A stretch of DNA of 54,276 nucleotides from a virus (IMGVR_UViG_3300029720_000017); one strand, 5' to 3'. Shown: positions 14,541-53,894, counted from the first letter of the stretch. The notes: generated from the letters alone by a model not told the origin. Made by a program: numbers and translations.

Positions 14541-14553
14541 ATACTAATAGTAT
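14541..14553. promoter_or_regulatory. palindromic site ATACTAATAGTAT downstream of the 14566 promoter
   Basis: Same arms, with one change in the spacer. It lies between the -10 and the RBS of gene 14121-14522. Confidence 0.55.
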
Positions 14554-14565
14554 AATTCTACCACA

Positions 14566-14594
14566 ATTATACTCTTAGTTATCGAAAAAGTAAA
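14566..14594 (-). promoter_or_regulatory. internal promoter for the scaffold/capsid genes (TTTACT-N17-TATAAT)
   Basis: agtaaa at 14589-14594 and attata at 14566-14571. Confidence 0.7.
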
Positions 14595-14652: not shown

Positions 14653-15486
14653 TTATACCAGCCACGCAGCCACGTGAGAAAGCTCGTCTGAAACGGTCTT
14701 CTCGAGGACCTCGAGCCACTGTGAGGGGATGGCAGAGTAACCATATAGGGCACCGGCGAGACCACCAGCGAGAGCCGCTATCGTGTCAGCGTCGCCACCG
14801 TCGTTCACGGCACCGAAGATGGCCTCCCGGAAGTCTCTCGTGTTATTTACCCAATACAGGGCATTGTTCAGAGTATTTATAACATGACCAGTAGGTTCCA
14901 TGTGAACACAGGGAGGAATCGCCCGGTCATCCATCATGTTGTTCACTGCCCGATAATACTTTACGATAGCTTCATCGCACACATCATTGGTATGGGTGAG
15001 CTTGGACTGTTCCCGTGCCAGACTGAGGTCTTTGGCAAGGCAGGGCACCAGACACCGCATCAGGCCACCGTTACCATAGTCCTGACGGCCACGCTTGCGC
15101 TGACGTTCCATATTCCTAACACTCCAAATGTCCCATCTGTGTCCTCTGTTCCCGGAGATGGCTGCATGACAGGTACTGCCAACATCAATCGGACCATCGT
15201 CCAACCAGTTCTCAAAGTTCTTGGCAATCTGAGTCATTCGACCGCTGAAAGTCAGCCTGTCCATCATGCCTCTTGCCACACAGAGCATCATCTGTGTATC
15301 ATCAGTAACCATACCGATGTCAATATTCAGCCAGCCACCACCGATGATGTCAGTCACCTGACCATACTGCTTCTTGATGCCCTCAGCGGTCATGAACTCC
15401 GTCGTGGCACCCATAGCATCACCGATGGCAAACCCATACAGGGCACCCATTATCTTGTCAATTCTCTTATTCTCATTCGTGTTCAT
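14653..15486 (-). CDS. ADP-ribosylglycohydrolase (ARH/DraG family)
   Basis: Contains GALYGFAIGDAMGATTEF near the N-terminus and GGDADTIAALAGGLAGALYG near the C-terminus, both family hallmarks. Confidence 0.85.
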   Translation of the reverse strand: MNTNENKRIDKIMGALYGFAIGDAMGATTEFMTAEGIKKQYGQVTDIIGGGWLNIDIGMVTDDTQMMLCVARGMMDRLTFSGRMTQIAKNFENWLDDGPIDVGSTCHAAISGNRGHRWDIWSVRNMERQRKRGRQDYGNGGLMRCLVPCLAKDLSLAREQSKLTHTNDVCDEAIVKYYRAVNNMMDDRAIPPCVHMEPTGHVINTLNNALYWVNNTRDFREAIFGAVNDGGDADTIAALAGGLAGALYGYSAIPSQWLEVLEKTVSDELSHVAAWLV

Positions 15487-16029: not shown

Positions 16030-17634
16030 CTATTTTTGATTTTTGACCAAAATTTCCATAAACACACGAATTACAGAGTTTCTGTGACCATCGGACTCCT
16101 CAATCTTGTTTATACGCACCGTTGTACCGGCATTGAGTAACGTTTCACCCTCGCCTGTACCGAACTGAGAAATGGACATGATAGAGGACGCCTGTGTACC
16201 CTTGGGAGCATAGAAAACAATCTCGACATCCCCTCCAAACCCCTTATTCCAGTCAGAAGAGGTACTGGTAAATCCAGCATATTGGCCAACCTTGCCTTGA
16301 AACAGCTTGTTCAAAGACTTAACTGACATCCCTTCTAATATGCTCTTATTATCAAAAAAGTCTCCATCAAGAAAACCAGCCAAGTCTCCAAGGTCTGTAC
16401 CGCGACGCAGTATTAAATCCTTTTCCAAAGCAGCTTTCTTCAGTGCAGATTGACACCGCTGTATGTCACCAGCGTACCAATCACCATGCTTATTATCAGC
16501 AGCCTCTTTACCTCTCTTCGCAGCAGTACGCAGCCAACCATTCATCTCTTTATAGCTACTACCTGTGTATTCTCTCAAGGAAGCCTTTTCTGCCTCGGTA
16601 AATCTTTCAAAGGCCGACTCTTCCATTTCCAACATTCCCGACGTAGTTTGACGTTCAAACAGACTTATCCACTCCTTAGAGGAAGGAATTTTCTGTATGT
16701 TGGTACCGGACTGTACATTGTCCTTAACTTCGGAGGCGATACCGCCCATACCCTCAATCCACTTATCCAAAGACGGGTCAGCCTTACCTTCAACCCAGTC
16801 AGCCAACCGGTCTGCGATTTCAGTCATACTCTGCGGAATGTATGCCTCAAAGGTACACATGCCGTTAGGGTGGTCAAGAGGGAGACTATCTTTGGGAAAG
16901 TGTTTACCATCTCGCTCCATACATACTTCACAGGTACGATTGCCCCCCGCAGACAACCAGACGTAATCCTCAACGAAGGGATTGTTTTTGGTAGTTCGTA
17001 CAAAGGCTTGTTGATAGGCGTGAGACACCATTGTACGAGCCAACCGTTGAGCATTGTAGTCAACTCTCTTGGCCGCGCCGGGGTACACCTTAGACCAGTC
17101 CCAGTCTTTTCTTGCTTCAGGATTCAGGTACTTCTCCAAATCCTTGGCTATGTCATAGGCACTCTTATTCTCTGCGATACCTTGTGCTACAACTGCGTTT
17201 ATATTGTACTGAGTCTTCATGTGATTTTTCCACAGGGCACGGCTCAGGCTCCACTTCCCCTCGTAGAGCTGACCACTTGCTACCGACTTAACAATGTCAG
17301 CCGGAACAAAACTGTATGCACCTTTAATCCCAAGACCCAGTTTATCTACGAATTTACCATTGTCGTCTACCACGGCCTGAGCCGCTGACTTCATATTGCC
17401 CTCAATCTCGCCCTTGAGAGACATCTCTGCTTTCTTGAGCTCCTTCTCGAGCTCCTTCTGTAAGTTCTTCAAGTGTTCCTCGTACAGAGGGGCAGAGGGT
17501 GTCTTAGGCAGCGTTTTGGCCTTTTTAGCAACGGATTTCGCAGCATTCTTATAGATGTCTACGATGTGCTTCTGCTGCTCTTTTGTAAGCTTTACTCTCT
17601 CCAGCTCAGCTGTATTCAGGTTAAACGTTGCCAT
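16030..17634 (-). CDS. MuF/SPP1 gp7-like head morphogenesis protein fused to a C3-like ADP-ribosyltransferase domain
   Basis: MuF core: AQRLARTMV...NRTCEVCMERDGKHF...HPNGMC. The C-terminal domain has YTGSSYKEMNGWLR, LRRGT (R), FTSTS (STS) and GEGETLL (ExE). Confidence 0.8.
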   Translation of the reverse strand: MATFNLNTAELERVKLTKEQQKHIVDIYKNAAKSVAKKAKTLPKTPSAPLYEEHLKNLQKELEKELKKAEMSLKGEIEGNMKSAAQAVVDDNGKFVDKLGLGIKGAYSFVPADIVKSVASGQLYEGKWSLSRALWKNHMKTQYNINAVVAQGIAENKSAYDIAKDLEKYLNPEARKDWDWSKVYPGAAKRVDYNAQRLARTMVSHAYQQAFVRTTKNNPFVEDYVWLSAGGNRTCEVCMERDGKHFPKDSLPLDHPNGMCTFEAYIPQSMTEIADRLADWVEGKADPSLDKWIEGMGGIASEVKDNVQSGTNIQKIPSSKEWISLFERQTTSGMLEMEESAFERFTEAEKASLREYTGSSYKEMNGWLRTAAKRGKEAADNKHGDWYAGDIQRCQSALKKAALEKDLILRRGTDLGDLAGFLDGDFFDNKSILEGMSVKSLNKLFQGKVGQYAGFTSTSSDWNKGFGGDVEIVFYAPKGTQASSIMSISQFGTGEGETLLNAGTTVRINKIEESDGHRNSVIRVFMEILVKNQK

Positions 17635-22624: not shown

Positions 22625-23299
22625 TTACAGGCCAGCCCGATACTTGTCGATTCTGACCTTCATTTCGCTTTCCTGATGCACATAAGGGATACCTCCAACC
22701 CGCTGACGGATGTCATCGTCAATGACACCATACAGAATCAGCTGACTGGGCTTGAGTCGCTTGAGCATCTCGCTGAATCCCCGATTGAACAGCATCCTCG
22801 CATTGGAATTTTGCATGCAGCCTACCGTGGATACACAGATACAGGAACCCTCAGGCATACCATCGAAGCAGTATTCAAAAGACTCTTCGTCGCTCCACTG
22901 AGCAGAGGGTACAACCCGAATGCCCAGAGAATTCATGTAAGAAGCCAACCACATATTTCTGTAGTAGTTCCAGATACGCATGGCACGAGGCATTGTCGTG
23001 TACTGGCTGAGGTCAGGCTGGATAATACCCTTGTACTGACCGAGGATGCCAGCATAGAAGTCCGGATTGTCCCAAACCCTCTCAATATACTGGTCAGGCA
23101 GGTAGAAATGAACCAGCTCGTCCTCTCTATCTACCATGTTTTCGGGCTTGGTACAGTAGTTAAACCCGATGAGGTGCTGCTTGTCCAGCTTCTTGAACTT
23201 CACCCCCGGAATTTTAGGTACATCATACCGTCCAACCAACTCCGGAGAGAATTTCTTTGTCTTCATAAAGTGTAGGAAGTCCTTTTCGCCAATAACCAT
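22625..23299 (-). CDS. DUF4417 domain protein
   Basis: LVHFY..D...ERVW..PD...PDLSQYTTMP...IWNYYRNMWLASY...GIRVVPSAQWSDEESFEYCFDGMP matches my recollection of DUF4417. Confidence 0.65.
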   Translation of the reverse strand: MVIGEKDFLHFMKTKKFSPELVGRYDVPKIPGVKFKKLDKQHLIGFNYCTKPENMVDREDELVHFYLPDQYIERVWDNPDFYAGILGQYKGIIQPDLSQYTTMPRAMRIWNYYRNMWLASYMNSLGIRVVPSAQWSDEESFEYCFDGMPEGSCICVSTVGCMQNSNARMLFNRGFSEMLKRLKPSQLILYGVIDDDIRQRVGGIPYVHQESEMKVRIDKYRAGL

Positions 23300-24006
23300 C
23301 AGTTGTCATCTCCTTTCGCTTTTGCTCGGACTACGTTGATTGTAATGGAGTCATCTCCATCGCCCTCTTCAAGCAGCTTTTTCTTCATGTTGAACTCATC
23401 CAGACGCAGCTTCATCTCTCGGCTCATCTTGTCAATCTCAGCTCTCTCCCTGGAAGTTACCCACTTGGCACCATAGGCACAATCAAGGACATGCCTTGCA
23501 CCGCCTTGACCGTCTCTATCATACAGGCGGCTTTCAACATACTCCTCAATACGCTGTCTTGCGGTATTCAATACACGCGCAAAAGTACTCATATCATCTG
23601 TGTCACAGCGCATTTCATCCAGAATGTTGTCTATAGCGCCACCTCTATATTCCATCATCGTTGTAGTTGAGAGTCCAAGGGCTCTTGCAAATCCTGAGAC
23701 CGTGTATGGACGGACTTGTACCCTGACAGGGCGACCATCCTCACCCATTACAATCTCACCATTCTTGTTAAATGTGTAACCCATGCAAGACTCAAAATAA
23801 GCCTCACACTTGGCTTGCAAATCTTCAACCGACAGAAACAGAGCTCTTCTACCGGGATTGTCAGTCATGCCTCTTTTCAAGGGCAACCGAATCCCTCTGA
23901 AGTCCAGTACCACATGTCTGGCGTCCAGCCAGCGTGACCGTATGACCGGATGTGCCGGGGCGTCGATAATCACTTTATGAATCCGTTCCTTCGCACGAGT
24001 GGCCAT
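23299..24006 (-). CDS. terS: terminase small subunit
   Basis: ATG at 24006 lies 8 nt after AGGAGG. RPYTVSGFARALGLSTTTMMEY and ARQRIEEYVESRLY are terS-like HTH/core motifs. First gene of the late block. Confidence 0.7.
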   Translation of the reverse strand: MATRAKERIHKVIIDAPAHPVIRSRWLDARHVVLDFRGIRLPLKRGMTDNPGRRALFLSVEDLQAKCEAYFESCMGYTFNKNGEIVMGEDGRPVRVQVRPYTVSGFARALGLSTTTMMEYRGGAIDNILDEMRCDTDDMSTFARVLNTARQRIEEYVESRLYDRDGQGGARHVLDCAYGAKWVTSRERAEIDKMSREMKLRLDEFNMKKKLLEEGDGDDSITINVVRAKAKGDDN

Positions 24007-24038
24007 CACGTTCACCTCCTTTCCAATTTCGACGAATA

Positions 24039-24051
24039 ATACTAAAAGTAT
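24039..24051. promoter_or_regulatory. palindromic site ATACTAAAAGTAT in the terS leader
   Basis: Exact 5+3+5 palindrome about 40 nt downstream of the terS promoter -10. Confidence 0.6.
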
Positions 24052-24084: not shown

Positions 24085-24113
24085 ATTATACTACTTCTCG
24101 TGAAAAAAGTAAA
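24085..24113 (-). promoter_or_regulatory. late-block promoter upstream of terS (TTTACT-N17-TATAAT on the minus strand)
   Basis: agtaaa at 24108-24113 and attata at 24085-24090 on the plus strand, with a 17-nt spacer. Confidence 0.7.
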
Positions 24114-24172: not shown

Positions 24173-24185
24173 ATACTAAAAGTAT
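24173..24185. promoter_or_regulatory. palindromic site ATACTAAAAGTAT upstream of the terS promoter
   Basis: Exact copy, with its centre 134 bp from the site at 24039-24051. Confidence 0.6.
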
Positions 24186-24219
24186 AATTCTTGAGCCCTC
24201 ATGATGCGATTTTCGGGTC

Positions 24220-24647
24220 AAAAATAGTCGGAAATTGTAGAGTTCCGACTATTTTTATTTCAAAAATAGGCGGAAAATTATGAGCCTCAAGATACAAGGA
24301 TTTATTGAGAATTACTCCGCCAGGAAAAGCAAAAACGGTCGGATTCGTCCCAAGCATGTCCACATTTTCCATTGAGGCATCCTCCGCCTATTTTTACACC
24401 CCCTTACTTCATTATGCGAGAAAAATAAATTATAAATAATAAGAAGAGTATAATAAGTACATATAATTTATATAAATAAATCCGGGAAAAATCGGGCGAC
24501 CGACTGCTCAATGTGATTCCACACTTTCTGCGCCTATTTTTGCGAATTTCTGATTACTCCGTCGAGTAATTCTCAATAACGTGTAATAATATATTTCCGT
24601 TTCTCCGACCGTTTTCCGACTATTTTTCTCATAATTCCGACCGTTTT
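24220..24647. repeat. array of 11-12-bp CCG(A/C)C(T/C/G)(A/G)TTTT motifs in both orientations, with nested inverted repeats
   Basis: aaaaatagtcgg at 24220; ccgactattttt at 24245 and 24616; aaaaataggcgg at 24262; aaaaacggtcgg at 24331; ccgcctattttt at 24384; gcgcctattttt at 24530; ccgaccgtttt at 24605 and 24637. Inverted repeat tattgagaattactc at 24303 and its reverse complement at 24564. Confidence 0.8.
24418..24484. other. extreme AT-rich tract (possible DNA unwinding element)
   Basis: aaaaataaattataaataataagaagagtataataagtacatataatttatataaataaa. Confidence 0.5.
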
Positions 24648-24767
24648 CCATTTCCCCACCGAGTAATCCTCAAGTCCTCAAGCCCGCTCCCGCTACACTT
24701 TCTCCACCTTATCCACACCTTTCCGAAAATTTTCTCAAAAATTTTCCAAAAATTTTGCAAAAAGGGC

Positions 24768-24796: not shown

Positions 24797-24961
24797 TGTG
24801 TCACAAAGTTGAGCTGAGGATAAAACAGAATGCTCCCTGAGCAATATCCTCCCTCTTTCGGGCAGGTGCGCTAAACAGCTGCGAAAGGCAACCTCAGCTC
24901 AACTTCACCCCACACCACTTCACACCACTTCTAAACAGTTCGAATCTGAAAGGAGACCACT

Positions 24962-27861: not shown

Positions 27862-28037
27862 GTGAATCCACCCTGCTGAGATACGGGTCGGTGCTGAAGA
27901 GTAACAACTTTACCACCTCCCGAGGGTTCTACACCATTCGCATCATCAGCTACGAGGGTCAGTTGTATTTCCACAAGATGAAAGATGGAAATCTGGTTGA
28001 GCTTATCAACCTTACAGAAATGGAGAAACGAGTATGA
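27849..28037 (+). CDS. hypothetical small protein
   Basis: Start is GTG at 27849 or 27858 and is not resolved. Confidence 0.4.
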
Positions 28038-28279
28038 CGACTATAAACATTGGGTACAGCAACTTCGTCAATGCCGACCATGTAGTTGCTATCGTCAGTC
28101 CGGAGTCAGCGCCTATCAAGCGCATGGTGCAGGAGGCTAAAGACTCTGGCCGCTGTGTAGACGCCACCTACGGACACCGCACCAGAGCCGTGCTGGTCAT
28201 GGACAATGGAGCTATCGTCCTGTCAGCGGTCCAACCTGCAACCATCATCAATCGCAACGGTCAGAAGGAGGACAAGTGA
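28034..28279 (+). CDS. remA: RemA/DUF370-family regulator homologue
   Basis: [65 protein letters not shown] is near-collinear with B. subtilis RemA as I recall it ([38 protein letters not shown]). Confidence 0.85.
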
Positions 28280-30188: not shown

Positions 30189-30374
30189 ATGAAGACAATG
30201 GTTGTATTCAGTAGAGAAGATTTTGAGGGCTTATCAGCTCTGCTTCAGAACGCTGTACATGATGCTGAAGTCCTTGAAAAGAACAACTCAAGTTACCTTA
30301 CCAGTAGACTGATAGACACTCTGCATAACGTACAACAATACTTGAAGGAGGACAACGACAATGGAGATGACTAA
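30189..30374 (+). CDS. hypothetical small protein
   Basis: GGAGG RBS, 61 aa. Confidence 0.5.
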   Translation: MKTMVVFSREDFEGLSALLQNAVHDAEVLEKNNSSYLTSRLIDTLHNVQQYLKEDNDNGDD

Positions 30375-30882
30375 GCGGATTGTAGAAATCATGAAGGTTC
30401 TTAGAAAACTCGGTATGCACGAAAATCTAATCGGGTTCCTCTATACTGTTACCGCCGTGGATGCCATACTCAATAGTGACCATGTGCTTCGGACCATGGA
30501 AATCTATGAAGCGGTAGAAGAGGCAGTTGGAATCCCTGCCAGCCGAGTGGAACGAAGCATTCGTCACTCGATAAAGACCCTATATGCAACCTCAAAGACA
30601 GTTCGGAATTCCCTAATCTTGGGGACGTCCTGTTGTTCATACAAGGACATCCCTTCCAATTCAACCTTCCTGTCTTCTGTAGCCAACTACATCCGTATGC
30701 AGGAGTATGAGGACACTAACAGAGTCACCTACTATTCCCGGCCTATAAACGCTGATGGAGACCCTGTATTTGCTCCTGACCTTGCGGAAAGGAAGTACGT
30801 AGCTGGATGGGGTGGTGGAGCGGAAACTGGTAGATACTGCCCCAATTTAACGGAGGTGATTACCCGTGATATAGAAGCCTGA
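30361..30882 (+). CDS. Spo0A C-terminal (DNA-binding) domain protein with no receiver domain
   Basis: LGMHENLIGFLYTVTAVDAIL...IYEAVEEAVGIPASRVERSIRHSIKTLY parallels Spo0A-C (HIKGYLYLREAI...ASRVERAIRHAIEVAW). It starts directly at that domain and has a ~60-aa unrelated C-terminal tail. Confidence 0.8.
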   Translation: MEMTKRIVEIMKVLRKLGMHENLIGFLYTVTAVDAILNSDHVLRTMEIYEAVEEAVGIPASRVERSIRHSIKTLYATSKTVRNSLILGTSCCSYKDIPSNSTFLSSVANYIRMQEYEDTNRVTYYSRPINADGDPVFAPDLAERKYVAGWGGGAETGRYCPNLTEVITRDIEA

Positions 30883-32383: not shown

Positions 32384-32456
32384 AATGAGACAGGAATTAT
32401 GAGGAAATTCACCCAAATTCTTGTCTCATTTCCCGGATTTTCCGGCTTTCTTTTTC
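32384..32456 (+). terminator. possible terminator region after the DUF2786 gene
   Basis: Stem aatgagaca/tgtctcatt with a long loop, then ccgg-atttt-ccgg and ctttcttttt. Confidence 0.4.
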
Positions 32457-32505: not shown

Positions 32506-33102
32506 ATGGATTTTAACTTTGCTGTAAAGAACAGGAGTGAAGAGGAGCGTATACAGCTGCTTCAGAGCACCCTTGTGATGAGCGGAATCAGTCCTAAGAG
32601 CTTTCCTATGGATTGGCTTGCCAGTACTGACTACTTCCGTGCCCCGGCCTCTAAGAAGTTTCATGCAGCATACCCCGGAGGCCTGTATGAGCATAGTCTG
32701 AACGTCACCTATAAACTGCTCCAATTCACTGAAGCTGGTCTGTGTTCTCCGTGGGGACGGCCGGAAAGTCCTATCATTGTAGGTATGCTGCATGACGCAA
32801 CCAAGATTGGACGGTATGCAGAATTCAAAGAGGTCAACCCCGATACTGGAGAGATGGAGATTTTCTACAAGGACAATCCCGACTACGTAAACCTCGGCGG
32901 ACATGGAAATGACTCTGTTCTCAAGCTCAAGCAGGTCATGAGGCTCACGGAGGAAGAGGAGCTGTGTATCAGGTATCACATGGGTGCTTATGAGACCGAT
33001 GATTGGGACGGCTTTGACAAGGCCATCCGCAAGTTCCCGAACGTACTATTCACCCATACCGCTGACATGTATGCCTCCAAGTGCATGGAGGTGACTCCGT
33101 GA
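32506..33102 (+). CDS. HD-domain phosphohydrolase
   Basis: Contains KKFHAAYPGGLYEHSLNV and GMLHDATKIG (H...HD...D pattern). Confidence 0.7.
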   Translation: MDFNFAVKNRSEEERIQLLQSTLVMSGISPKSFPMDWLASTDYFRAPASKKFHAAYPGGLYEHSLNVTYKLLQFTEAGLCSPWGRPESPIIVGMLHDATKIGRYAEFKEVNPDTGEMEIFYKDNPDYVNLGGHGNDSVLKLKQVMRLTEEEELCIRYHMGAYETDDWDGFDKAIRKFPNVLFTHTADMYASKCMEVTP

Positions 33103-34133
33103 GGAACAAGCCGGGGGACATTCCCTACCTCGGCGTTCGCAAGGAGCTGGTACTGACGGCTGAGCCTACCTTAGATGAGGAAGTCCTGCTACACCTGTAT
33201 CGGTTCATCACTCGGCGGTATAAAGTCCATATCAAGAAGGACATCCAAGGTCTACCAGCTCCTTGGACAAAAGACCCGGTCATACAGAACTATCGGTTTA
33301 CCAATGTCAGACGGGAGCATGACAAGGAAACTCGTTGGCTGATACAAAATATCGTCAACAATCCAAACGTTACCTATGAGGACAAGCTCCTCAACTGCGT
33401 GCTTTTCCGACTCTACAATAAACATGAAACATCAGAGCTGCTATCTCAACCTATTCCCTTTACTCATATTATAGAGAAGAACGGTGTATGGGATCCGGAT
33501 TCCTATCGAGCACTCTTTGCCGCACAGGATTGCATATACCCTGAGCGAGTTTTCTTTACTGGAGTGTTCATGGTGAGTGGGTTGCTTCGTATCGCTAACC
33601 AGTACACTCCCGAAGGAACGGACGAAGAGGACACCAGAATGCGACCTCTGTGGCTTCTGAGACATCTGGTAGACCTGCACTTACCCGACCGGATAAAACG
33701 CTGCAAGACGGCTCGAGAGGTCTGCAGAGTCCTTTCTCGAATTGATGGTATTGGGGTGTTCCTTGGGTACCAGATGTTCGTGGATATGACCTACATACCG
33801 GAGTTCCCTTTCAGTGAGAACGAGTACGTAGTGGCTGGCCGTGGTTGTCAAAGGGGCTGCGAGTATCTGTTTGAAGACTCCGATGACATGACTTACGAAG
33901 AGTGTATCTTTTGGCTGCGAGACCATCTTGAGGACATCTTTGCCGAGCATACAAAGGGAAAATTTAGCTGCAAGACCCTGTTCCATGACCTCCCTCCTTA
34001 TGACCAGCAGTTCAATGTCATGAGCATAGAGAATTGTCTGTGCGAACTCAGTAAATACACCAGAGTTCTACGTAAAGAGGGAAGACCAAGAAAACGTTAT
34101 CAAGGAGGACAAGATGAAAAAGACAAGAAATGA
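33099..34133 (+). CDS. candidate DNA base-hypermodification enzyme (aGPT-pyrophosphorylase-like)
   Basis: GTG at 33099 lies 5 nt after GGAGGTG with a GTGA overlap. The motif PWTKDPVIQNYRFTNVRREHDKETRW matches my recollection of the alpha-glutamyl/putrescinyl-thymine pyrophosphorylase family signature. This assignment needs an HMM check. Confidence 0.5.
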   Translation: MRNKPGDIPYLGVRKELVLTAEPTLDEEVLLHLYRFITRRYKVHIKKDIQGLPAPWTKDPVIQNYRFTNVRREHDKETRWLIQNIVNNPNVTYEDKLLNCVLFRLYNKHETSELLSQPIPFTHIIEKNGVWDPDSYRALFAAQDCIYPERVFFTGVFMVSGLLRIANQYTPEGTDEEDTRMRPLWLLRHLVDLHLPDRIKRCKTAREVCRVLSRIDGIGVFLGYQMFVDMTYIPEFPFSENEYVVAGRGCQRGCEYLFEDSDDMTYEECIFWLRDHLEDIFAEHTKGKFSCKTLFHDLPPYDQQFNVMSIENCLCELSKYTRVLRKEGRPRKRYQGGQDEKDKK

Positions 34134-34716
34134 GCTGCGACGAGACCGGATTTATGACATCATCATAACCATTGTGATGGTACTGGTGCTCATTGCCGTG
34201 GGTATCCAAATCGGTGCTTGGATTGAAAATGCCAAGTATGAGCCCAAGGAGAGCAAACAGGTCTACTACGAAGCCAGTGATTGTGCCTTTGAGATGCCTG
34301 AAGACCCACTGGAGACTTATCTCATTGAACGAGCAATCATGGCCAAGCCTACTCCCGCTGTAATGGGTTATGACTATGATTATGTGTGTCGTGTTGTTAT
34401 GGCTGAGACCGGGGGCGAGTACAATGAAGACCTTACACTGGCAGTATGTCAGGCTATTGCCAATGCCGCTGTAGAAAACAACTGGACTCCCGAGGAAGTC
34501 TGTATCAAGTACAAGTACACCAGACCCCACGAGTATACCAGTGACTTCATTCAAAACATCTGTGACCGAGTGTTTATTCAGGGCGAAGTATATGAGGCCT
34601 CTGGAAATGCTCAGGTTTTCTACAATCCCAGTTATGGTCACAGCAGCTACCATGAGAGTCAGAGCTTTGTGTGTGAAATTGGTGGTGTTCGGTTCTTTGA
34701 GAGGGTGAGTGTATGA
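34114..34716 (+). CDS. membrane-anchored cell-wall hydrolase, SleB-like (Hydrolase_2)
   Basis: N-terminal TM segment IYDIIITIVMVLVLIAVGIQIGAW. The catalytic-domain motifs VCRVVMAETGGE, LAVCQAIANA, VFYNP and IGGVRFF parallel SleB C-terminal motifs. Confidence 0.65.
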   Translation: MKKTRNELRRDRIYDIIITIVMVLVLIAVGIQIGAWIENAKYEPKESKQVYYEASDCAFEMPEDPLETYLIERAIMAKPTPAVMGYDYDYVCRVVMAETGGEYNEDLTLAVCQAIANAAVENNWTPEEVCIKYKYTRPHEYTSDFIQNICDRVFIQGEVYEASGNAQVFYNPSYGHSSYHESQSFVCEIGGVRFFERVSV

Positions 34717-35531
34717 TACCTGTATTCGTACCTTCCTACAAGCGTCCCAAGGCTAAATTCCTTGTACGCGCCATGGAGCAGGAATTTCCTCTGTATGTCT
34801 TTGTGCGTAAAGAGGAGAGGGATGCCTACGCATGGATAAAGGAGCGCCCTGATACTACTCTGGTATTGCTGTCCAACGTTTCTAACATTGGTGAGACTCG
34901 CAGAGCCATGTTCCGCTATGCTGTACACCATCGGATACCTAAAATCATCATGGTGGACGATGACGTTACCCGTTTAGACTTGTCTATGGTTGACCCGGTA
35001 TCCGGAAGGGTAAAGGCTTCCGGCAATGTGACTGGTCATACTGAGAGCTGGAACAAGGTCATTACTCGGTTTGAAAATCTCTGGGGTAAACAGGCCATGT
35101 TCGGTGCCTCTTATAGACCCTTCAGTTGGTCTATGTCTGAGGAGGAAATTCTCAAGCTGAGTAGAGGTCAGCTTCAGCAGGTCGTTGGTATCAATGTCAA
35201 ACAGATTTACAAGGCTGGCCTGAATTATCAGAGCAATACAGTCGTTGGAAATGAAGACCTGTTCCTCCAGCTGGAGTGCTATCAGCAGGGATTGGAGTGT
35301 GTCAAAACCAATGCTATTCAGTATGACTGTCCCGCTATGGGTGCCGGAGAAGGAGGCTGTAATGCTTCGGAGCTCGGTTCTCTTGCAGAAAAGCAGAGAG
35401 TCAGGGTAGAGGCATTTCTCAAGGCATGTAATAATTCTCCCGCTGTACGAGTGGCTACTACCAGAAGCGGGATTGAGAGTATCAAGTTCAACTGGAAAGA
35501 GATAAACAAGATGATGGAGGGAGTACTATGA
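34713..35531 (+). CDS. GT-A-like glycosyltransferase (candidate DNA glycosyltransferase)
   Basis: MIPVFVPSYKRP at the N-terminus and IIMVDDDV (DxD-type). The genomic context is nucleotide-metabolism genes. Confidence 0.5.
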   Translation: MIPVFVPSYKRPKAKFLVRAMEQEFPLYVFVRKEERDAYAWIKERPDTTLVLLSNVSNIGETRRAMFRYAVHHRIPKIIMVDDDVTRLDLSMVDPVSGRVKASGNVTGHTESWNKVITRFENLWGKQAMFGASYRPFSWSMSEEEILKLSRGQLQQVVGINVKQIYKAGLNYQSNTVVGNEDLFLQLECYQQGLECVKTNAIQYDCPAMGAGEGGCNASELGSLAEKQRVRVEAFLKACNNSPAVRVATTRSGIESIKFNWKEINKMMEGVL

Positions 35532-36004
35532 ATACAAACAGTTGGTTGGATATGGCGGAGATGTACGCTCAGAAGAAGAGCGGTTGTAACAAAGTCGCCG
35601 TAGGTTGTGCCATTGTTAGTCCTGACCGGAGGCAGCTTTTGACTCTGGGAGCAAATCAGGCCATGCCTGACCTGTGCAAGTCGGAGCGTGGCTGTCTGCG
35701 GATGGAGCTCTATGGTGAAGACAGTAAAGCACACCGGAACTCTGGTGATTGCAGAGCCATTCACAGTGAGATTGATGCCATCTCTGGCGCGGCTGAGTGG
35801 GGTGTGTCTCTGCGTGGGGCTATTGCCTTTGTTACTCGGTATCCTTGCGAAAGTTGTGCCAAGGCACTGATTCGTGCCGGTATCAAGGAAGTCTACTATG
35901 GCGGGACTGCTACTGTGAGCGAATATACCAGATACCTGTTCGAGATGTACAAAGTCCGATGCTATCATATTACAGGCTGGCGTGAAGACCTGTCTGACCG
36001 ATAA
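35528..36004 (+). CDS. dCMP deaminase (ComEB/T4 cd-like)
   Basis: HSEIDAI (HxE) and YPCESCAKALIRAGIKEVYY (PCxxC) zinc-deaminase motifs. Confidence 0.8.
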   Translation: MNTNSWLDMAEMYAQKKSGCNKVAVGCAIVSPDRRQLLTLGANQAMPDLCKSERGCLRMELYGEDSKAHRNSGDCRAIHSEIDAISGAAEWGVSLRGAIAFVTRYPCESCAKALIRAGIKEVYYGGTATVSEYTRYLFEMYKVRCYHITGWREDLSDR

Positions 36005-41886: not shown

Positions 41887-41961
41887 GCAGATGTAGCTCA
41901 ATGGTAGAGCATTCGGCTGTTAACCGAAGGGTTGTTGGTTCGAGCCCAACCGTCTGCGCCA
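41887..41961 (+). tRNA. tRNA-Asn: tRNA-Asn (anticodon GUU), CCA encoded
   Basis: Hand-folded cloverleaf. Acceptor GCAGATG/CGTCTGC, D stem GCTC/GAGC, anticodon stem TTCGG/CCGAA with loop CTGTTAA, variable loop GGGTT, T arm GTTGG-TTCGAGC-CCAAC, discriminator G and CCA. Confidence 0.85.
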
Positions 41962-44563: not shown

Positions 44564-44905
44564 ATGGACAAGATTACAATCCATTCCGAGCTTTGCACAG
44601 AGATGCATGCCCTGTACAAGCACAAAAATGCTGACTACGGAGATAGCTTTGCTCGGCTCCGAAAGCGTTACCCGAACTTTGTGTGTATGCGGCTGTTTGA
44701 CAAGCTCAACCGTCTGGACACCATCATCCAGCCGGGGTATGAGTGTAAGGTGTCTGACGAGAAAATTGAGGACACCCTGATGGATATCGCCAACTATGCT
44801 ATCATGGAGCTGACTGAGCGTAGAGCTGAACGCCCTTTCGCTGAAGAAGTGATGAGACGAGCTCGTAATAGCGAGCCTGTGGTCATCAAGAACACCGATA
44901 TCTGA
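44564..44905 (+). CDS. DUF1599 / nucleotide-modification-associated domain 1 protein
   Basis: KHKNADYGDSF....MRLFDKLNRL is the DUF1599 pattern. It lies directly upstream of the ThyA homologue. Confidence 0.65.
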   Translation: MDKITIHSELCTEMHALYKHKNADYGDSFARLRKRYPNFVCMRLFDKLNRLDTIIQPGYECKVSDEKIEDTLMDIANYAIMELTERRAERPFAEEVMRRARNSEPVVIKNTDI

Positions 44906-44918
44906 TAGGAGGAAAATC

Positions 44919-45635
44919 ATGGCTGTAACTGTATTCAATGCAAAAACCGTAAACGAGGCTTGGGAACAGGCTTTCGAGGCTCTGAAGGCTCAGGCCAATG
45001 AGGGCTTCAATGATACCTCTCGCGATGGAGGGGTTGTGGGTGAGATTACCGATGCAGTCTTCTGCATTGAAGACCCCACTCGCAACATCGTGACCAGTCC
45101 CATTCGCAAGATGCCTATGCGCTATGCCGTGGGCGAGCTTGCATGGTATCTATCTGGCTCCAACAAGGCTTCCGACATCGGTCGCTTTGCTAAGAAGTGG
45201 CTGGAAATTTCTGACGACGGCGAGACCAACAACTCCGCGTATGGTTATCGTATTTTCACAAAGTTCGGCTTTGACCAGTGGAAGCACGTCAAGAACATGC
45301 TGCAGAAAGACCCCAACTCCCGTCAGGCAGTTATCCACATCAAGGACGCTGATAACAAACTTACCAAGGATACCCCATGCACGGTCTATCTGCAGTTCTT
45401 CATTCGGAATGGCAAGCTGAATCTCTCTGTTCACATGCGCTCCAATGACATCTGGATGGGTGTACCCTATGACATGTTCAGTTTCTGTTTCCTGCAGATG
45501 AAGATGGCTATGGAGCTGGGGGTTGAGATTGGTGAGTATCATCATTATGCCGGTTCTTTGCACATGTATGCTCGGGACTGGGAAGCCGCCAAGAAGAACA
45601 TGGGTGAGGTCTGCTGTACTGAGCTGAAGAGGTGA
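44919..45635 (+). CDS. thymidylate-synthase-fold pyrimidine C5 transferase, probably dCMP-specific (hydroxymethylase or methylase)
   Basis: PCTVYLQFFIRNGKLNLSVHMRSNDIWMGVPYDMFSF aligns residue by residue with E. coli ThyA [37 protein letters not shown]. An Asp replaces the specificity-determining Asn. Confidence 0.75.
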   Translation: MAVTVFNAKTVNEAWEQAFEALKAQANEGFNDTSRDGGVVGEITDAVFCIEDPTRNIVTSPIRKMPMRYAVGELAWYLSGSNKASDIGRFAKKWLEISDDGETNNSAYGYRIFTKFGFDQWKHVKNMLQKDPNSRQAVIHIKDADNKLTKDTPCTVYLQFFIRNGKLNLSVHMRSNDIWMGVPYDMFSFCFLQMKMAMELGVEIGEYHHYAGSLHMYARDWEAAKKNMGEVCCTELKR

Positions 45636-48177: not shown

Positions 48178-48209
48178 GAAAATTTTCTCAAAATTTTTGT
48201 AAAAAGTGC

Positions 48210-48238
48210 TTTACTTTTCCAAAAGATAGAGTTATAAT
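48210..48238 (+). promoter_or_regulatory. promoter P5 (TTTACT-N17-TATAAT)
   Basis: TTTACT at 48210 and TATAAT at 48233. Upstream A/T tracts. Confidence 0.75.
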
Positions 48239-48286
48239 TGTATCATAAATTAAATCAACCCCCTCAATTCTGAAAGGAGCTCTACA

Positions 48287-48685
48287 ATGAAAAACGATAT
48301 GATTAAAATCACCTGCATCGATGGCACTAACTTCCTGACTTCTCTGGATTACACCACTGAAAAGATGACTGAGCTGATTGATGAGTCCAGCAAACAGATG
48401 CCGGAAAGAAAGCTGTCCTACAAAGTATTCAAGTCCGGCGAGATGCCTCTGGAGGAGCTGCCCGAACTGATTCAGACTCAAGTCAAATCCGTTCTTCGTG
48501 CGTATCCCCGCTGCACGGTGACTTATGAATATGGCAAGTTCTCCGTCAGCGCCGGTTGCTGTATCAAGAATCACTACAACTTTGACCACTATGTGGCTGG
48601 GACTTACTGGGACAGCGATGTCTACACCCTCGAGGAGCGTCGGCAGAACTACAAAGAAGAGTTCGGATATGCACCTTGCTTCTAA
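48287..48685 (+). CDS. hypothetical protein
   Basis: RBS context tctgaaaggagctctacaATG. First gene after the promoter at 48210. Confidence 0.6.
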   Translation: MKNDMIKITCIDGTNFLTSLDYTTEKMTELIDESSKQMPERKLSYKVFKSGEMPLEELPELIQTQVKSVLRAYPRCTVTYEYGKFSVSAGCCIKNHYNFDHYVAGTYWDSDVYTLEERRQNYKEEFGYAPCF

Positions 48686-48787
48686 GCTGTACCAAGATGT
48701 TTCTGATATGGAAATTCGCTTTTGGAAATACACTATTTAGAAGAAAGCGAGCAGAACTACATTGAAGAACTTTAAGGAGGTAACACC

Positions 48788-49675
48788 ATGAAAGAGTACA
48801 CCGTCAAGAACAATGATTTCACCGAATTCGACATCAATCCTGACCTGACCTTGGACAGAGTTGACCGTAATGGTACCCACTACTACACCAATAACCGTTG
48901 CCCCAAGTGCGGCGGAGAGAAGTACATCTCCTATTACACCCATGTTGACGGCGGTGTTTGCTTCCTCTGCGGCGGTACTGGTGTTCATCCCACCAAGGTG
49001 GTCGTCAGAACCGAAGAGTACGCCGCCAAGCTGGATGCCAAGCGTCTGGAGAAAGCTCGCAAGACTGCTGGAGCTCGGAATGCCGAGTACCTTCATCGTC
49101 AAGGCTTCAACGCCGATGGTATGACTTGGGTAGTCATGGGTGAGACCTATTCTCGCAAGGACGAGCTGAAGGCCGCTGGTTGTAAGTGGAGTCCTGAGTT
49201 CGGCTGGCACTTTGACCACGAGACCGAGCAGTTTGACACGGTTGTAGTGACCATCCGTACCATGATTCCGTACTTTGAGGACGAGAATGGTCAGCCTTGC
49301 ACTTCCGCTATCGGTCAGTACTCCGTTGACGGAACTCTGTATTTCCTCCGCTCCGAGTTCATTATGGACTACATGAAGTCCCTCCGCGAACAGTACATCG
49401 CTGACCACGCTCCTAAGACCGAGCATTTCGGTAACGTGGGTGATAAGGTGGAGCGAGAGGTCAAGCTCGTTCGTCGCGCTGGGTTCGACACTATGTGGGG
49501 AACGACCTTTGTGTACACCTTTGTGGACTCCGATGGTCATCAGTTCATCTGGAAGACTGGCTGTTACCTTGACCAGTCTGAGGGCAGCACCCTCACCGTC
49601 CGGGGTACGATTAAAGCCCACTCCGAGTACCGGGGTGCGCGGCAAACTGAGCTCACCCGGTGCCGAGTCGCGTAA
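48788..49675 (+). CDS. DnaJ-type zinc-finger (CxxCGG x2) protein with an OB-like C-terminal domain
   Basis: Contains CPKCGGEK and CFLCGGTG. The C-terminus FGNVGDKVEREVKL...LTVRGTIKAHSEYRGARQTELTRCRV is OB-fold-like. Last gene of the plus block. Confidence 0.6.
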   Translation: MKEYTVKNNDFTEFDINPDLTLDRVDRNGTHYYTNNRCPKCGGEKYISYYTHVDGGVCFLCGGTGVHPTKVVVRTEEYAAKLDAKRLEKARKTAGARNAEYLHRQGFNADGMTWVVMGETYSRKDELKAAGCKWSPEFGWHFDHETEQFDTVVVTIRTMIPYFEDENGQPCTSAIGQYSVDGTLYFLRSEFIMDYMKSLREQYIADHAPKTEHFGNVGDKVEREVKLVRRAGFDTMWGTTFVYTFVDSDGHQFIWKTGCYLDQSEGSTLTVRGTIKAHSEYRGARQTELTRCRVA

Positions 49676-49784: not shown

Positions 49785-49810
49785 ACTCCCCCACCACACG
49801 GCGGGGGAGT
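49785..49810. terminator. bidirectional terminator between the convergent blocks
   Basis: Stem actccccc/gggggagt (8 bp). T-rich on both strands after the stem. Confidence 0.65.
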
Positions 49811-51271: not shown

Positions 51272-51934
51272 TTAGACCGCGGGAGAATACGAACAACCAC
51301 AGGTGTTGGCCGTATAGGGAGAGCAGGTGATGTACGCAGGACGCGCTACCGGCTGAAGCCGGTTGACCAGATACATGTTCTGGAGCAGCTGGCTGTTCTC
51401 GAACTTACTGTCCTGCAGCTTGTCACGCAGCTCCTGGATGGTGTTAGCGGTCATCATAGCGCGGGTCGCATCACCATCAGCCTTGATTGCATTGACGATG
51501 TCACAGGTGTTGCGAGCGTTCTCGTACTTGACGGAGTCAATGTTACGATTGGTCTCGCAGCAGCAGCTCTGCTGAGCGAACCGATTGTCAGAGAAGCCCT
51601 GAGCAATCTGGCTCTGCAGACTGTTCATGCCCTGAAGCATGGTAGTGTTCATGGCGTAGAAGCCATCACACAGACCATTGGACAGGCCACGTACACCGTT
51701 CTGCAGGTCGTTGAAGTTGAAGTCCTGGCACAAGTCAGCTCTGGTCAGAGCACCCTGAGCAGCCGCGCCGTTGCCGAAGCCGAAGCCACCGCCACCCCAC
51801 GCCAGCAGGAAGAACAGGAAGAAGACCCACACCCAAGTGCCACCGGCACCTCCAAACATGCTACCGTCGGTGTTGCGATTCTGGAGAGCCATGACATCAG
51901 CCACGGACATCCCACTACCAGTTTCCATACCCAT
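51272..51934 (-). CDS. membrane protein with a Gly-flanked TM segment and conserved Cys motifs
   Basis: Contains GGAGGTWVWVFFLFFLLAWGGGGFGFG (YjcZ-like), then LCQDFNFNDL, LCDGFYAMN, SCCCETN and a C-terminal CSPYTANTCGC. Confidence 0.6.
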   Translation of the reverse strand: MGMETGSGMSVADVMALQNRNTDGSMFGGAGGTWVWVFFLFFLLAWGGGGFGFGNGAAAQGALTRADLCQDFNFNDLQNGVRGLSNGLCDGFYAMNTTMLQGMNSLQSQIAQGFSDNRFAQQSCCCETNRNIDSVKYENARNTCDIVNAIKADGDATRAMMTANTIQELRDKLQDSKFENSQLLQNMYLVNRLQPVARPAYITCSPYTANTCGCSYSPAV

Positions 51935-51963
51935 TGTAGATACCTCCTTGTTAAAATTTTATC

Positions 51964-52179
51964 TCAACCCAGCGGGAACTGGGATTGAAACTGAGCCCAC
52001 ATCTGGTCAAAGTCCAGACCTCTCTGCTTACAGAGATTCATACAGGTCTGCTTGAGCTGCTCCGGGGATTTACCCTGAGCCATCTGCTGTGCCTGACGGA
52101 ACATAGGATTAGAGCCAAACTGCTTGGACATAAAGGACATGGGATTCATCATAGCACCCATCATCTGGAACGGATTCAC
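51964..52179 (-). CDS. small Met/Gln-rich protein
   Basis: GTG start 8 nt after AGGAGGG, with a GTGA overlap. Sequence MNPFQMMGAMMNPMSFMSKQFG... Confidence 0.5.
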   Translation of the reverse strand: MNPFQMMGAMMNPMSFMSKQFGSNPMFRQAQQMAQGKSPEQLKQTCMNLCKQRGLDFDQMWAQFQSQFPLG

Positions 52180-52643
52180 TGTTTATTCCCTCCTTTCAGC
52201 TTCTGCTCAATCTTAGAGAGCTTTTCCGTCAGCCCCTGTACCGCTGCATTAAAGTCCTCCTCCCGGACGTATCCTGACAGGTCAACGGTCTGCGGAGAGG
52301 CCTCGACGGGCTTTGCTACCGGGGTGTCTACACTGTACCGCTGGAAGATGATGTTGCCATCAAGACCGAGCTGCTTAGTGTAGATTTTGCCATGCGCCTT
52401 GTCAGGGAACACAAACAGAGACCCATCGAAGTCAATCATGGCGGCATTGGCCTCCTCCTCGTTGGATACCGGTCTACCCTTGAGGATAGGAGCCGCAGGG
52501 GTCTGAGGCTGCTGAGGCGGTTGCTGAGGGAAACTGTTACCCATCTGAGGGTACTGAGCCTCCATCATCTGAAGCCTCTGCTGAGCGCTTTGCATGGCCG
52601 GATTGTTGTACGGATAGGGAGTCATAGGTGCCATAGGATACAT
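52176..52643 (-). CDS. Pro/Gln-rich protein, hypothetical
   Basis: AGGAGGT RBS. The N-terminal P/Q/M-rich ~55 aa are followed by a globular part and a C-terminal coiled-coil. First gene of the six-gene module. Confidence 0.6.
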   Translation of the reverse strand: MYPMAPMTPYPYNNPAMQSAQQRLQMMEAQYPQMGNSFPQQPPQQPQTPAAPILKGRPVSNEEEANAAMIDFDGSLFVFPDKAHGKIYTKQLGLDGNIIFQRYSVDTPVAKPVEASPQTVDLSGYVREEDFNAAVQGLTEKLSKIEQKLKGGNKQ

Positions 52644-52677
52644 AGAAATTACCTCCTGTCTGGTATATTCTACCTCT

Positions 52678-52740
52678 ATTATACCTCGTCTGAATTGGCA
52701 GGAGTATACTAAAAGTATTCGTCAAGAATACTAAAAGTAT
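52678..52740 (-). promoter_or_regulatory. promoter lacking a -35 (TATAAT only), with two ATACTAAAAGTAT palindromes upstream
   Basis: attata at 52678-52683. At the -35 position the sequence reads TACTCC. Palindrome cores lie at 52706-52718 and 52728-52740. Confidence 0.55.
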
Positions 52741-52751
52741 AATTTTGGGCA

Positions 52752-52785
52752 TAAAAAGAACACCACCCTGTATAGAGTGGTGTTC
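52752..52785 (-). terminator. intrinsic terminator after the sigma-like gene
   Basis: Stem gaacaccac/gtggtgttc (9 bp) followed on the minus strand by TTTTTAT. Confidence 0.7.
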
Positions 52786-52790
52786 CTTAT

Positions 52791-53021
52791 TTAGAAAAGT
52801 TTGGACAGCTTGGAGAGAGCTTTGACGTGTCTTTTCTTGATTGTGATTTCCGCATATCCAAGTGTATCACCGATGTAGCGGAAGTCCTTGCCTTTGAGGT
52901 AGTGGAGCCTCAATATCTCCTTGTCCTCATCCGATAGGGTGGATTCGTTCAACAGGTCATCGAAGCGTCTCACACTTGGGATAGCCTCAAGGCGTTTCCT
53001 TGTATCAAGGTGAGTGCTCAA
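52791..53021 (-). CDS. sigma-70 region-4-like HTH protein (76 aa), candidate transcription regulator
   Basis: TTG start 6 nt after AAGGGGTG. LSDEDKEILRLHYLKGKDFRYIGDTLGYAEITIKKRHVKALSKL is a region 4.2-type HTH. Confidence 0.65.
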   Translation of the reverse strand: MSTHLDTRKRLEAIPSVRRFDDLLNESTLSDEDKEILRLHYLKGKDFRYIGDTLGYAEITIKKRHVKALSKLSKLF

Positions 53022-53103: not shown

Positions 53104-53520
53104 TTACCCGAGGGACTCGACTTCGTCACTGAGGCTCCCTTGCTCGGGCTGTATGTTCTGGTTCTCGTTGTTGTCACTGTTATGGTCTGCTTCGCCATAG
53201 TTTACCTCCTCAGAATTGCCTTGGACGTATTTGGCACTCTCACCAGATTGGAAAACGTTGTTACCGCTACCCTCTCCGGTGTCTTGCTCAACTGTCGTTG
53301 TAACCGTTTCAGTTGTGGTCATGTTCTTCTCGTACTGCACAAATATGATGCAGATAACGAGGTTGACCAGTATACTGACGATGAGAATCAACCGCAGCCA
53401 GAAGTCCTCGCGCCGCTTTGATTCCAGCATGGTCATCACGATGTGGTTGAGAGCTATGCTTTGGTCAAGGGCGTCTTCTTCAGTCTTCATGGTTTCCAAG
53501 TCCTGGATAGGAATGTCCAT
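53104..53520 (-). CDS. XhlA-like membrane protein with a long hydrophilic tail
   Basis: ATG at 53520 lies 9 nt after AGGAG. A helical N-terminus is followed by FWLRLILIVSILVNLVICIIF, comparable to XhlA ..W.LRLI.. plus TM. Confidence 0.45.
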   Translation of the reverse strand: MDIPIQDLETMKTEEDALDQSIALNHIVMTMLESKRREDFWLRLILIVSILVNLVICIIFVQYEKNMTTTETVTTTVEQDTGEGSGNNVFQSGESAKYVQGNSEEVNYGEADHNSDNNENQNIQPEQGSLSDEVESLG

Positions 53521-53833
53521 GCATTTCAACTCCTGTCTGTTTGATATAGTTCAGAATCTCAATGAGTACATCGTGCGTATTGTTGAGGTCACTGAGATTG
53601 TGGAACAGCGTTTTAATCTGCTCTTCATGAGAGTTGACCAAAAGGGCGAGGCTCTGCTGGCTGTTCTTTATCTCTTTGACATCGGTTTTCAACTCTGCAA
53701 TACCGGCTACTGCTTGATTGAGCTTTTGTACGACCTCGCCGTCGGCTTTGGCACGGCTGTTCATACCCACAACAAAGGTTGCAATACCAATCACACAGGC
53801 AATGATACTACAGATGAACAAAGTTGTCTCCAT
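53480..53833 (-). CDS. N-terminally anchored coiled-coil protein with an XhlA-like motif
   Basis: TM segment LFICSIIACVIGIATFVVG, then ELKTDVKEIKNSQQSL (compare XhlA ELKNDVKEIKDDL). AAAGGAGGA RBS. Confidence 0.45.
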   Translation of the reverse strand: METTLFICSIIACVIGIATFVVGMNSRAKADGEVVQKLNQAVAGIAELKTDVKEIKNSQQSLALLVNSHEEQIKTLFHNLSDLNNTHDVLIEILNYIKQTGVEMHGHSYPGLGNHED

Positions 53834-53865: not shown

Positions 53866-53894
53866 ATTATACTCCTCTGAAACGGAAAAGTAAA
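53866..53894 (-). promoter_or_regulatory. promoter for the XhlA-like/sigma-like unit (TTTACT-N17-TATAAT)
   Basis: agtaaa at 53889-53894 and attata at 53866-53871. Confidence 0.7.

Follow-up and report, generated by a model that had tools for sequence, protein, structure and literature searches.

Why should a phage genome carry the same 13-base-pair (bp) palindrome beside several promoters of one strand, and what would read it there? We took up this question for the viral contig IMGVR_UViG_3300029720_000017, a stretch of 54,276 nucleotides (nt) referred to throughout as the window, beginning from positions 52678-52740, where two copies of the palindrome stand upstream of an operon whose first gene encodes a protein of 155 amino acids (aa). 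Comparison with related phages argues that the palindromes are genuine, conserved regulatory sites that act at the level of DNA, and points to a 76-aa stand-alone sigma-70 domain-4 protein (hereafter sigma-4), encoded at 52791-53021 on the minus strand, as the best candidate for binding them.

Relatives were drawn from a viral-contig collection, as 24 loci with the 155-aa protein, 80 loci around TerL and 30 loci with sigma-4, and from a metagenome collection, which supplied 70 further sigma-4 loci (individual loci are denoted by L numbers). Since several of the 155-aa and TerL loci came from the same ~50-kilobase (kb) contigs, different promoters of one phage could be compared. No close relative was found among GenBank phages, megablast matching only fragments of two unannotated faecal phages, and a TerL protein search returned no cultured phage above 60% identity. 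Two word-based comparisons were set aside. An exact 14-mer scan of the viral contigs with AATACTAAAAGTAT gave at least 120 unrelated single matches, a word of this length being too short to be informative there; a shared 9-mer comparison of the 155-aa promoter with the TerL loci was too noisy, and promoter-anchored views were used instead.

Palindromes at minus-strand promoters

The window holds eight perfect TTTACT-N17-TATAAT promoters, four on each strand, whose extended form is (G)CTTTACTTTT-N-TATAAT. Those of the plus strand, to which a degenerate fifth promoter at 32446 can be added, have their starts at 24768, 31000, 41122 and 48210, and those of the minus strand at 14594, 16026, 24113 and 53894. 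Five copies of ATACT-N3-AGTAT were found, at 14541-14553, 24039-24051, 24173-24185, 52706-52718 and 52728-52740, exactly where the initial annotation had placed them. Four are the exact 13-mer ATACTAAAAGTAT with centre AAA, and the copy at 14541-14553 has centre AAT; the centre has the same orientation in all five. By chance, 0.04-0.05 copies would be expected from dinucleotide shuffles and 0.02 from block shuffles. In the block shuffles the enrichment was limited to the perfect-arm class: palindromes with one arm mismatch numbered 6 against 1.5 expected, and those with two numbered 20 against 23, classes that were taken as background. Two of these weaker palindromes are still found at regulatory spots, one in the spacer of the scaffold promoter (14569-14581) and one in a promoter-like stretch (24439-24451).

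All five perfect copies are intergenic, as a scan proposed with the initial annotation was meant to establish, and intergenic DNA makes up only ~7.5% of the window on a greedy map of open reading frames (ORFs). Each copy adjoins a minus-strand promoter, and none was found at any plus-strand promoter of the window, the degenerate one at 32446 included. The claim that the motif marks only minus-strand promoters thus stands as far as the strand is concerned, but two of the four consensus promoters of that strand (16026 and 53894) lack it, so that it marks a subset of them.

At the virion genes the copies lie on or close to consensus promoters. The terS gene (23299-24015) stands behind its own promoter at 24085-24113 on the minus strand (TTTACT-N17-TATAAT), whose leader carries the copy at 24039-24051 from +28 to +40 (centre +34), with a left arm that extends to GAATACT. 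The upstream copy at 24173-24185 is centred at about -101 (about -95 to -107), at the edge of a repeat-rich non-coding region; we rederived the spacing of 134 bp between the two centres. The scaffold/capsid copy at 14541-14553 occupies +7 to +19, between the start site and the ribosome-binding site, downstream of the scaffold-operon promoter (14566-14594, minus strand). This promoter is also of the consensus type, and its spacer has the degenerate copy at 14569-14581, with two arm mismatches, which matches the place of a perfect, -10-overlapping copy in L151 and L152.

Relatives carry a longer version, GAATACT-WWW-AGTATTC, with arms of 7 bp and centres TTT, AAT, ATT, TAT or AAC, the centre being flipped between the window and L153. 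In L153 and L150, whose TerS proteins are 57-60% identical to that of the window, the terS promoter reads TTTACTttttcGAATACTAATAGTATAAT, in which the palindrome fills the spacer and overlaps the -10; the terS promoter of the window keeps only the right arm (AGTAT) of this spacer operator. A second terS copy follows near +25 (GAATACTTTTAGTATTC or GAATACTAACAGTATTC), and the scaffold promoter of the same phages has ATACTAATAGTAT at +6 to +18, the place it takes in the window, with the centre inverted. The scaffold promoters of L151, L152 and L154 have ATACTTATAGTATAAT over the -10 plus a leader site ATACGGAG[AG]GTAT (one arm mismatch in L152 and L154). Apart from the near-identical contig of L121 and L145, the closest relatives are L149 and L148, which keep window-type sites at the 155-aa and scaffold promoters; their terS promoter is flanked by two copies of the 18-mer GTATACGGATAGTAATCG instead of the palindrome, a replacement that preserves ATAC-N4-AGTA and the leader position. 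The leader position at terS and the +7 to +19 position at the scaffold promoter are both occupied also in L149, L153 and L150.

Both arms are therefore kept across phages with TerS 50-60% identical to that of the window while the flanks diverge, and conservation of two-fold symmetric arms around a variable A/T-rich centre is the pattern of a palindromic operator. In the window and its relatives the palindrome falls on the core promoter or within the ~40 bases transcribed first, as repressor operators do, and the overlap with the spacer and -10 or with +7 to +40 at terS and scaffold makes these likely repressor positions. Since copies stand in untranscribed spacers and the centre can be flipped, recognition would be of DNA, with two-fold symmetry. 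In other clades the terS -10 lies inside unrelated, single-copy perfect palindromes (L162, 6007-6028; L164, 9104-9124; L157, 8990-9007). Control of the terS promoter seems general in the phage group, with the operator sequence turning over between clades.

An 11-bp-phased array behind the sigma-4 gene

The promoter of the 155-aa operon is of another kind. As initially annotated, it has no TTTACT at 17 bp; the nearest -35-like word is TATACT, 19 bp upstream of TATAAT. Its -10 elements are tandem (52667-52683, minus strand), with TATAAT at 52683-52678 and a second, TAGAAT, one helical turn downstream at 52672-52667. The proximal palindrome (52706-52718) is centred at -41 from TATAAT and the distal one (52728-52740) at -63, so that the two are 22 bp, or two helical turns, apart; these distances, too, were rederived from the sequence. 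Because the relative L123/L230 retains only TAGAAT as the -10, the start site is uncertain by 11 bp, and the centres could instead lie at -52 and -74. A TTGACG between the two sites was considered as a -35 and rejected, being absent from L123 and having no -10 at a usable distance.

Just upstream of the two sites is an intrinsic terminator hairpin (52753-52786, minus strand; GAACACCAC...GTGGTGTTC followed by a T run), which ends the operon encoding sigma-4 and is conserved at this place in relatives. The initial annotation had read palindromes here, a view that the relatives correct: at the 155-aa position most of them have direct repeats, 11 bp apart and not palindromic. On the minus strand the window itself reads ATACTTTTAGT, ATTCTTGACGA, ATACTTTTAGT, ATACTCCTGCC in 11-bp phase, the proximal palindrome being units 3 and 4, and GTATAC is itself palindromic. 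We infer that the two palindromes of this promoter are array units whose neighbours complete an inverted repeat by happenstance.

The array of (T)ACTT units begins right after the stop codon of the sigma-4 gene, and gene and array together recur in 35 non-redundant phage lineages irrespective of the gene downstream. All 24 viral loci with the 155-aa protein show the same order of sigma-4 gene, usually a terminator hairpin, repeats, -10 and 155-aa gene, and the array persists behind the sigma-4 gene in L245, L247, L251 and L253, where the next gene bears no relation to the 155-aa protein. Examples of the repeats are GTATACTTTcggGATACTTTctGTATACTTC in L135; GATACTTTTAA, twice and followed by two further units, in L132; TATACTTTCGT, TATACCCCCAA and TATACTCCTCG in L245; ACTTTTTAGAT, three times, in L263; and AATACTTTTGA, TGAACTTTTCA and TAGACTTTGAT in L289. 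In most lineages the promoter-nearest unit stands 19-20 bp upstream of a TATAAT-like -10. We quantified the phasing in the 35 lineages by counting pairs of words up to 40 nt apart and comparing them with 500 shuffles. For ACTT, 30 of 40 pairs were spaced by exactly 11, 22 or 33 nt (shuffle mean 0.4), and for TAC[TC] the count was 57 of 96 (shuffle mean 0.8); no shuffle out of 500 reached the observed value in either case.

The gene under the two sites (52176-52643, minus strand) encodes a protein with a Q/P/M-rich N-terminus and no known family, and is followed by conserved genes for proteins of 71 and 220 aa. Within this operon (51272-52643) Q, M, P and F are abundant in the 155-aa and 71-aa proteins, and the 220-aa protein combines a Gly-rich hydrophobic stretch with clusters of Cys; all three, without known function, are conserved throughout the relatives. 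In six relatives (L130, L135, L137, L140, L141 and L144) the -10 is immediately followed, in the leader ~30-75 nt upstream of the 155-aa gene start, by a long, nearly perfect hairpin (TAATTGAATTGTAAGG...CCTTACAATTCAATTA) that the window does not have.

Sigma-4 as candidate binder and its rivals

The 76-aa protein has a TTG start and matches Pfam Sigma70_r4 (2e-8) as well as the C-terminal ~60 positions of extracytoplasmic function (ECF) sigma profiles (NCBIfam ECF sigma C-terminus). Its AlphaFold2 model has a predicted local distance difference test score of 93, and the top structural neighbours of the model are domain 4 of SigB, SigL, SigD, SigH and sigma-E. The family counts 748 homologues, which sit on ~50-kb phage contigs and carry no informative names; among the matches listed, nearly all of 120 are 76-79 aa long, and no annotated phage homologue was found. 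The protein does not appear to be part of a full sigma factor, with region 2 as well as region 4, as no sigma region-2 match was obtained among the ORFs scanned against Pfam; a split factor with region 2 in the two upstream ORFs was discarded because these encode small membrane proteins. The repeat unit xTACTT(T) resembles the -35 of the phage itself, TTTACTTTT, and xTACTT also resembles the -35 of ECF sigma factors, GGAACTT. Such words are what a sigma domain 4 would be expected to read.

Arrangements of this type are known from the Ltr superfamily of late activators of Gram-positive phages, which includes RinA, ArpU, LtrA, LtrB and LtrC (PMC3753634, PMC3152322). LtrA belongs to the Sigma70_r4 family. 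The direct repeats bound by Ltr proteins are 7 nt long and lie directly behind the coding sequence of the protein concerned, which activates the promoter that follows (PMC3753634). The likeness extends to a small phage regulator whose DNA-binding part, here as there, resembles sigma-70 region 4; to direct repeats right after the regulator's own gene (here the phased (T)ACTT units of the 35 lineages), with the ltr terminator in the same intergenic region; and to repeats that lie upstream of a promoter which would depend on the regulator, regulator and repeats travelling as a module. The sigma-4 gene and its array having the same layout as these characterised activators, sigma-4 is the best candidate binder. 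The differences are also clear. The window protein corresponds to the C-terminal domain alone (76 aa) and lacks the separate N-terminal domain of the ~130-140-aa Ltr proteins, as in the 134-aa LtrA of phage 37. Similarity to the latter is weak and confined to the helix-turn-helix (residues 92-129; hhalign probability 63%, E 7e-5 with the sigma-4 family profile). The sigma-4 gene does not stand just upstream of terS to control the terS promoter, its putative target being an operon of unknown function ~28 kb away; terS has a consensus sigma-A promoter with palindromes in repressor positions, which is not described for Ltr systems; and the phage looks virulent, not temperate.

Other systems share single features. 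GerE of Bacillus subtilis, a 74-aa helix-turn-helix protein of the LuxR/FixJ family that binds inverted repeats as a dimer, likewise consists of hardly more than a DNA-binding domain of four helices, akin to sigma region 4, and activates or represses according to site position. The window protein, however, scores as Sigma70_r4 and not as GerE (no PF00196 (GerE/LuxR) match; GerE 1FSE only at E 0.65 in the profile search), and its primary sites would be 11-bp-phased direct repeats. Phage phi29 p4 and lambda CI at OR each repress some promoters and activate one without a good -35 from a site near -40, and so combine, in one phage protein, the dual action proposed here; their folds are unrelated to sigma domain 4, and in phi29 the late promoter is activated and early ones are repressed, whereas here the virion promoters appear repressed. 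In the pho boxes of PhoB and the Cox boxes of phage P2, the -35 is replaced or flanked by direct repeats at intervals of about one helical turn, to which a small protein binds side by side along one DNA face, but through a winged helix (PhoB) or the Cox fold, and without a second, palindromic arrangement of the unit.

A model with sigma-4 as the single binder can be framed as follows. Sigma-4 would read the half-site (GA)ATAC(T), which resembles a -35 element. In what may be the ancestral and widespread use, it would bind the 11-bp-spaced (T)ACTT array just after its own gene, and the bound array would replace the missing -35 of the next promoter and activate it in the manner of the Ltr activators. 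In this phage and its closer relatives two half-sites would also face each other, as GAATACT-WWW-AGTATTC, at the terS and scaffold promoters, which are of sigma-A type and would otherwise be constitutive; protein bound to these palindromes, which overlap the promoter or follow shortly downstream, would block RNA polymerase. One regulator would then restrain the virion genes and switch on the 155-aa operon. Such dual repression and activation, proposed in the initial annotation, fits the comparative data and the site positions, which are repressor-like at terS and scaffold and activator-like at the -35-less promoter; the sign of regulation at each is one that we infer. The full model, in which sigma-4 binds array and palindromes, represses terS and scaffold and activates the 155-aa operon, is in our judgement evenly balanced between right and wrong, and we are considerably more confident that the palindromes are protein-binding operators, whichever protein binds. 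A bolder version would make this the whole timing switch of a virulent phage: on phased -35-like units, a free-standing sigma domain 4 would substitute in trans for the -35 reader of the host sigma factor and make promoters with 2-3 bp too many between -35-like word and -10 usable by host RNA polymerase, and the same domain, head to head on palindromes, would shut the consensus virion promoters. We consider this improbable.

Several observations weigh against a single binder. The sigma-4 gene stands behind a consensus promoter without an operator (53866-53894, minus strand), which drives two small membrane proteins and then sigma-4; the protein should therefore be made from the start, and no mechanism was found that would later free the virion promoters from repression. 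In clades whose sigma-4 recognition helix is nearly unchanged, the terS promoter has unrelated, single-copy -10-centred palindromes (GAATTTAATTATAATTAAATTC in L162 and AGATTTATTTATAATAAATCT in L164), and the spacer site of L155/L157 overlaps a second palindrome, AC[CT]TATAGTAATATAGGT; this suggests a separate, fast-evolving terS repressor, a serious rival. In the clade of L124 and L153 the array units read CATACATTC, while the palindromes keep ATACT. A suggestive covariation between recognition-helix residue 63 (K to Q) and the repeat unit ATACATTC fails in L284, which has Q63 with ATACTTTT. One small domain would need two binding geometries to serve both head-to-head palindromes and head-to-tail arrays, and the many small ORFs without family assignment could hide another DNA-binding protein. 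As to the two genes ahead of sigma-4 (53104-53833), their products of 117 and ~138 aa have one predicted membrane helix each, are holin-like in form, are kept in nearly all of the 24 relatives and would be co-transcribed with sigma-4.

It is possible, though we would hold it only tentatively, that the palindromes are operators of a different protein, be it a clade-specific small phage protein, the RemA homologue or a host regulator. Sigma-4 would then serve only the direct-repeat array, and the palindromes of the 155-aa promoter would be sites of the second regulator laid over it. That the operator at terS changes between clades while the sigma-4 helix does not would follow if terS control were independent of sigma-4, as it seems to be, and an always-on sigma-4 repressor offers no obvious late switch; yet the palindrome half-site is the very word of the array beside the sigma-4 gene, and in the window the exact 13-mer is common to the 155-aa promoter array and the terS promoter. 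The initial annotation had named three possible binders, and they fared unequally, sigma-4 being favoured because its gene is always followed by phased half-site repeats, as in Ltr systems. The Spo0A-C gene (30361-30882) was confirmed but, among the loci compared, occurs only in the window and L153; it is absent from most relatives having the site and so cannot be the general binder. The RemA homologue (28034-28279), also confirmed, occurs in 13 TerL loci out of the 15 compared, L159 and L160 being without it, but RemA is reported to wrap DNA at poorly conserved repetitive regions (PMC8481266) rather than to read sharp 17-bp palindromes; it is the less likely binder, and TCCG[AC]C[TC][AG]TTTT repeats would suit it better as a target. 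A clade-specific protein would have room among the small early ORFs, most of which have no family match, although in the regions compared the occurrence of the palindrome across loci is not matched by that of any window protein. Pfam scans of ~70 window ORFs gave no further classical helix-turn-helix protein, and searches of PDB sequences with the conserved 122-aa and 133-aa proteins gave no match. We also rejected, as a general binder, a 57-aa ORF between the terS sites (24199-24372), which is full of iteron-like repeats and among the loci compared is found only in the near-identical L145; as it overlaps TCCG-type repeats, it is probably not a gene.

Very unlikely, in our view, is the absence of any regulatory role, with the palindromes as by-products of promoter duplication or mosaic recombination, or as weak antisense -10 elements of the plus strand. 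The right arm AGTAT does belong to the TATAAT-type -10 context common to the late promoters, AGTATAAT, which three window copies read on the plus strand; this plus-strand TATAAT, however, has no accompanying -35, and two copies have no plus-strand TATAAT at all. Close relatives have exchanged the terS copies for an 18-mer, but one that retains the spaced half-sites and the leader position, and conservation of both arms between diverging flanks, with extension to 7 bp in relatives, would be hard to reconcile with by-products. Hardly credible is the RNA-level alternative, a leader hairpin affecting mRNA stability, translation or termination: copies 14541 and 24039 do lie between start site and ribosome-binding site and all five window copies share one strand orientation, but the stem has 5 bp and the loop 3 nt, the leaders fold no more stably than shuffles (z = +0.15 and +0.48) and show no stable conserved structure or Rfam match at the palindromes, copies 24173, 52706 and 52728 lie upstream of their promoters, and in relatives copies occupy untranscribed spacers, to which such a role cannot apply, with flipped centres.

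Genomic setting and implications

The plus strand of the window encodes a 5-hydroxymethyl-deoxyuridine (5-hmdU) DNA kinase, a TET-associated glycosyltransferase-like protein, a dCMP deaminase, a thymidylate-synthase homologue, a primase/helicase, a family A DNA polymerase and an SNF2 helicase. The minus strand encodes terS, a nuclease, TerL, portal, an endolysin-like protein and a MuF-ADP-ribosyltransferase fusion, followed by an ADP-ribosylglycohydrolase operon and the scaffold/major-head operon. As no integrase family turned up among the ~70 ORFs scanned against Pfam, the phage looks virulent. A thymidine hypermodification gene set is spread over 33081-36004 and 44564-45635 and comprises the 5-hmdU DNA kinase (2.8e-66), the TET-associated glycosyltransferase-like protein, the dCMP deaminase, a DUF1599 nucleotide-modification domain and the thymidylate-synthase homologue. 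Such a set makes hypermodified thymine probable in the phage DNA, with possible effects on any protein that reads T-rich sites. In the bolder version of the model, the timing of the switch could possibly be governed by the modification state, since both strands of the operator sites are rich in T.

The MuF-like minor head protein fused to an ADP-ribosyltransferase exoenzyme domain (16030-17634) and the ADP-ribosylglycohydrolase just downstream (14653-15486), behind the operator-free consensus promoter 16026, look like a toxin/antidote pair. At least eight copies of TCCG[AC]C[TC][AG]TTTT, in both orientations, fill the 0.6-kb divergent intergenic region between late and early genes (24210-24660); relatives carry similar repeats (CGCCTAATTTT and CGCCTATTTTT), and the region may serve as an origin or else be bound by another regulator, for example the RemA homologue. 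In the first early operon, the leader contains a perfect 14-bp inverted repeat (AAGTTGAGCTGAGG at 24806-24819 and CCTCAGCTCAACTT at 24892-24905) around 72 nt, to which no Rfam family matched. Long minus-strand ORFs at 48188-49645 are probably shadows, since the plus-strand genes 48287-48685 and 48788-49675 fit the consensus promoter 48210 and a convergent terminator at 49785-49810; no family match was found for the genes and ORFs at 48188-49675. A single transfer RNA gene (41887-41958, plus strand) lies within the replication module.

The clade of this phage, large and uncultured, consists of human-gut phages of ~50 kb and has no characterised relative; the analysis gives the phage a regulatory map with three classes of promoter: plain consensus, consensus with operator, and a -35-less class that would depend on a repeat array. 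It also brings out a compact family of 748 members of ~76 aa, stand-alone sigma domains 4 whose putative sites can be read directly downstream of the gene. By analogy, a stand-alone sigma domain 4 with an adjacent, helically phased, -35-like array is a candidate minimal version of the Ltr regulator-plus-repeats module, and would extend the Ltr principle to a single-domain form and to a target other than terS; in the subclade of this phage the half-site appears to have been deployed also as palindromes on consensus virion promoters. If sigma-4 does bind these sites, protein and sites would make a very small, portable activator/repressor part for Firmicutes, and would pose the question of how constitutive-looking late promoters escape repression in a virulent phage.

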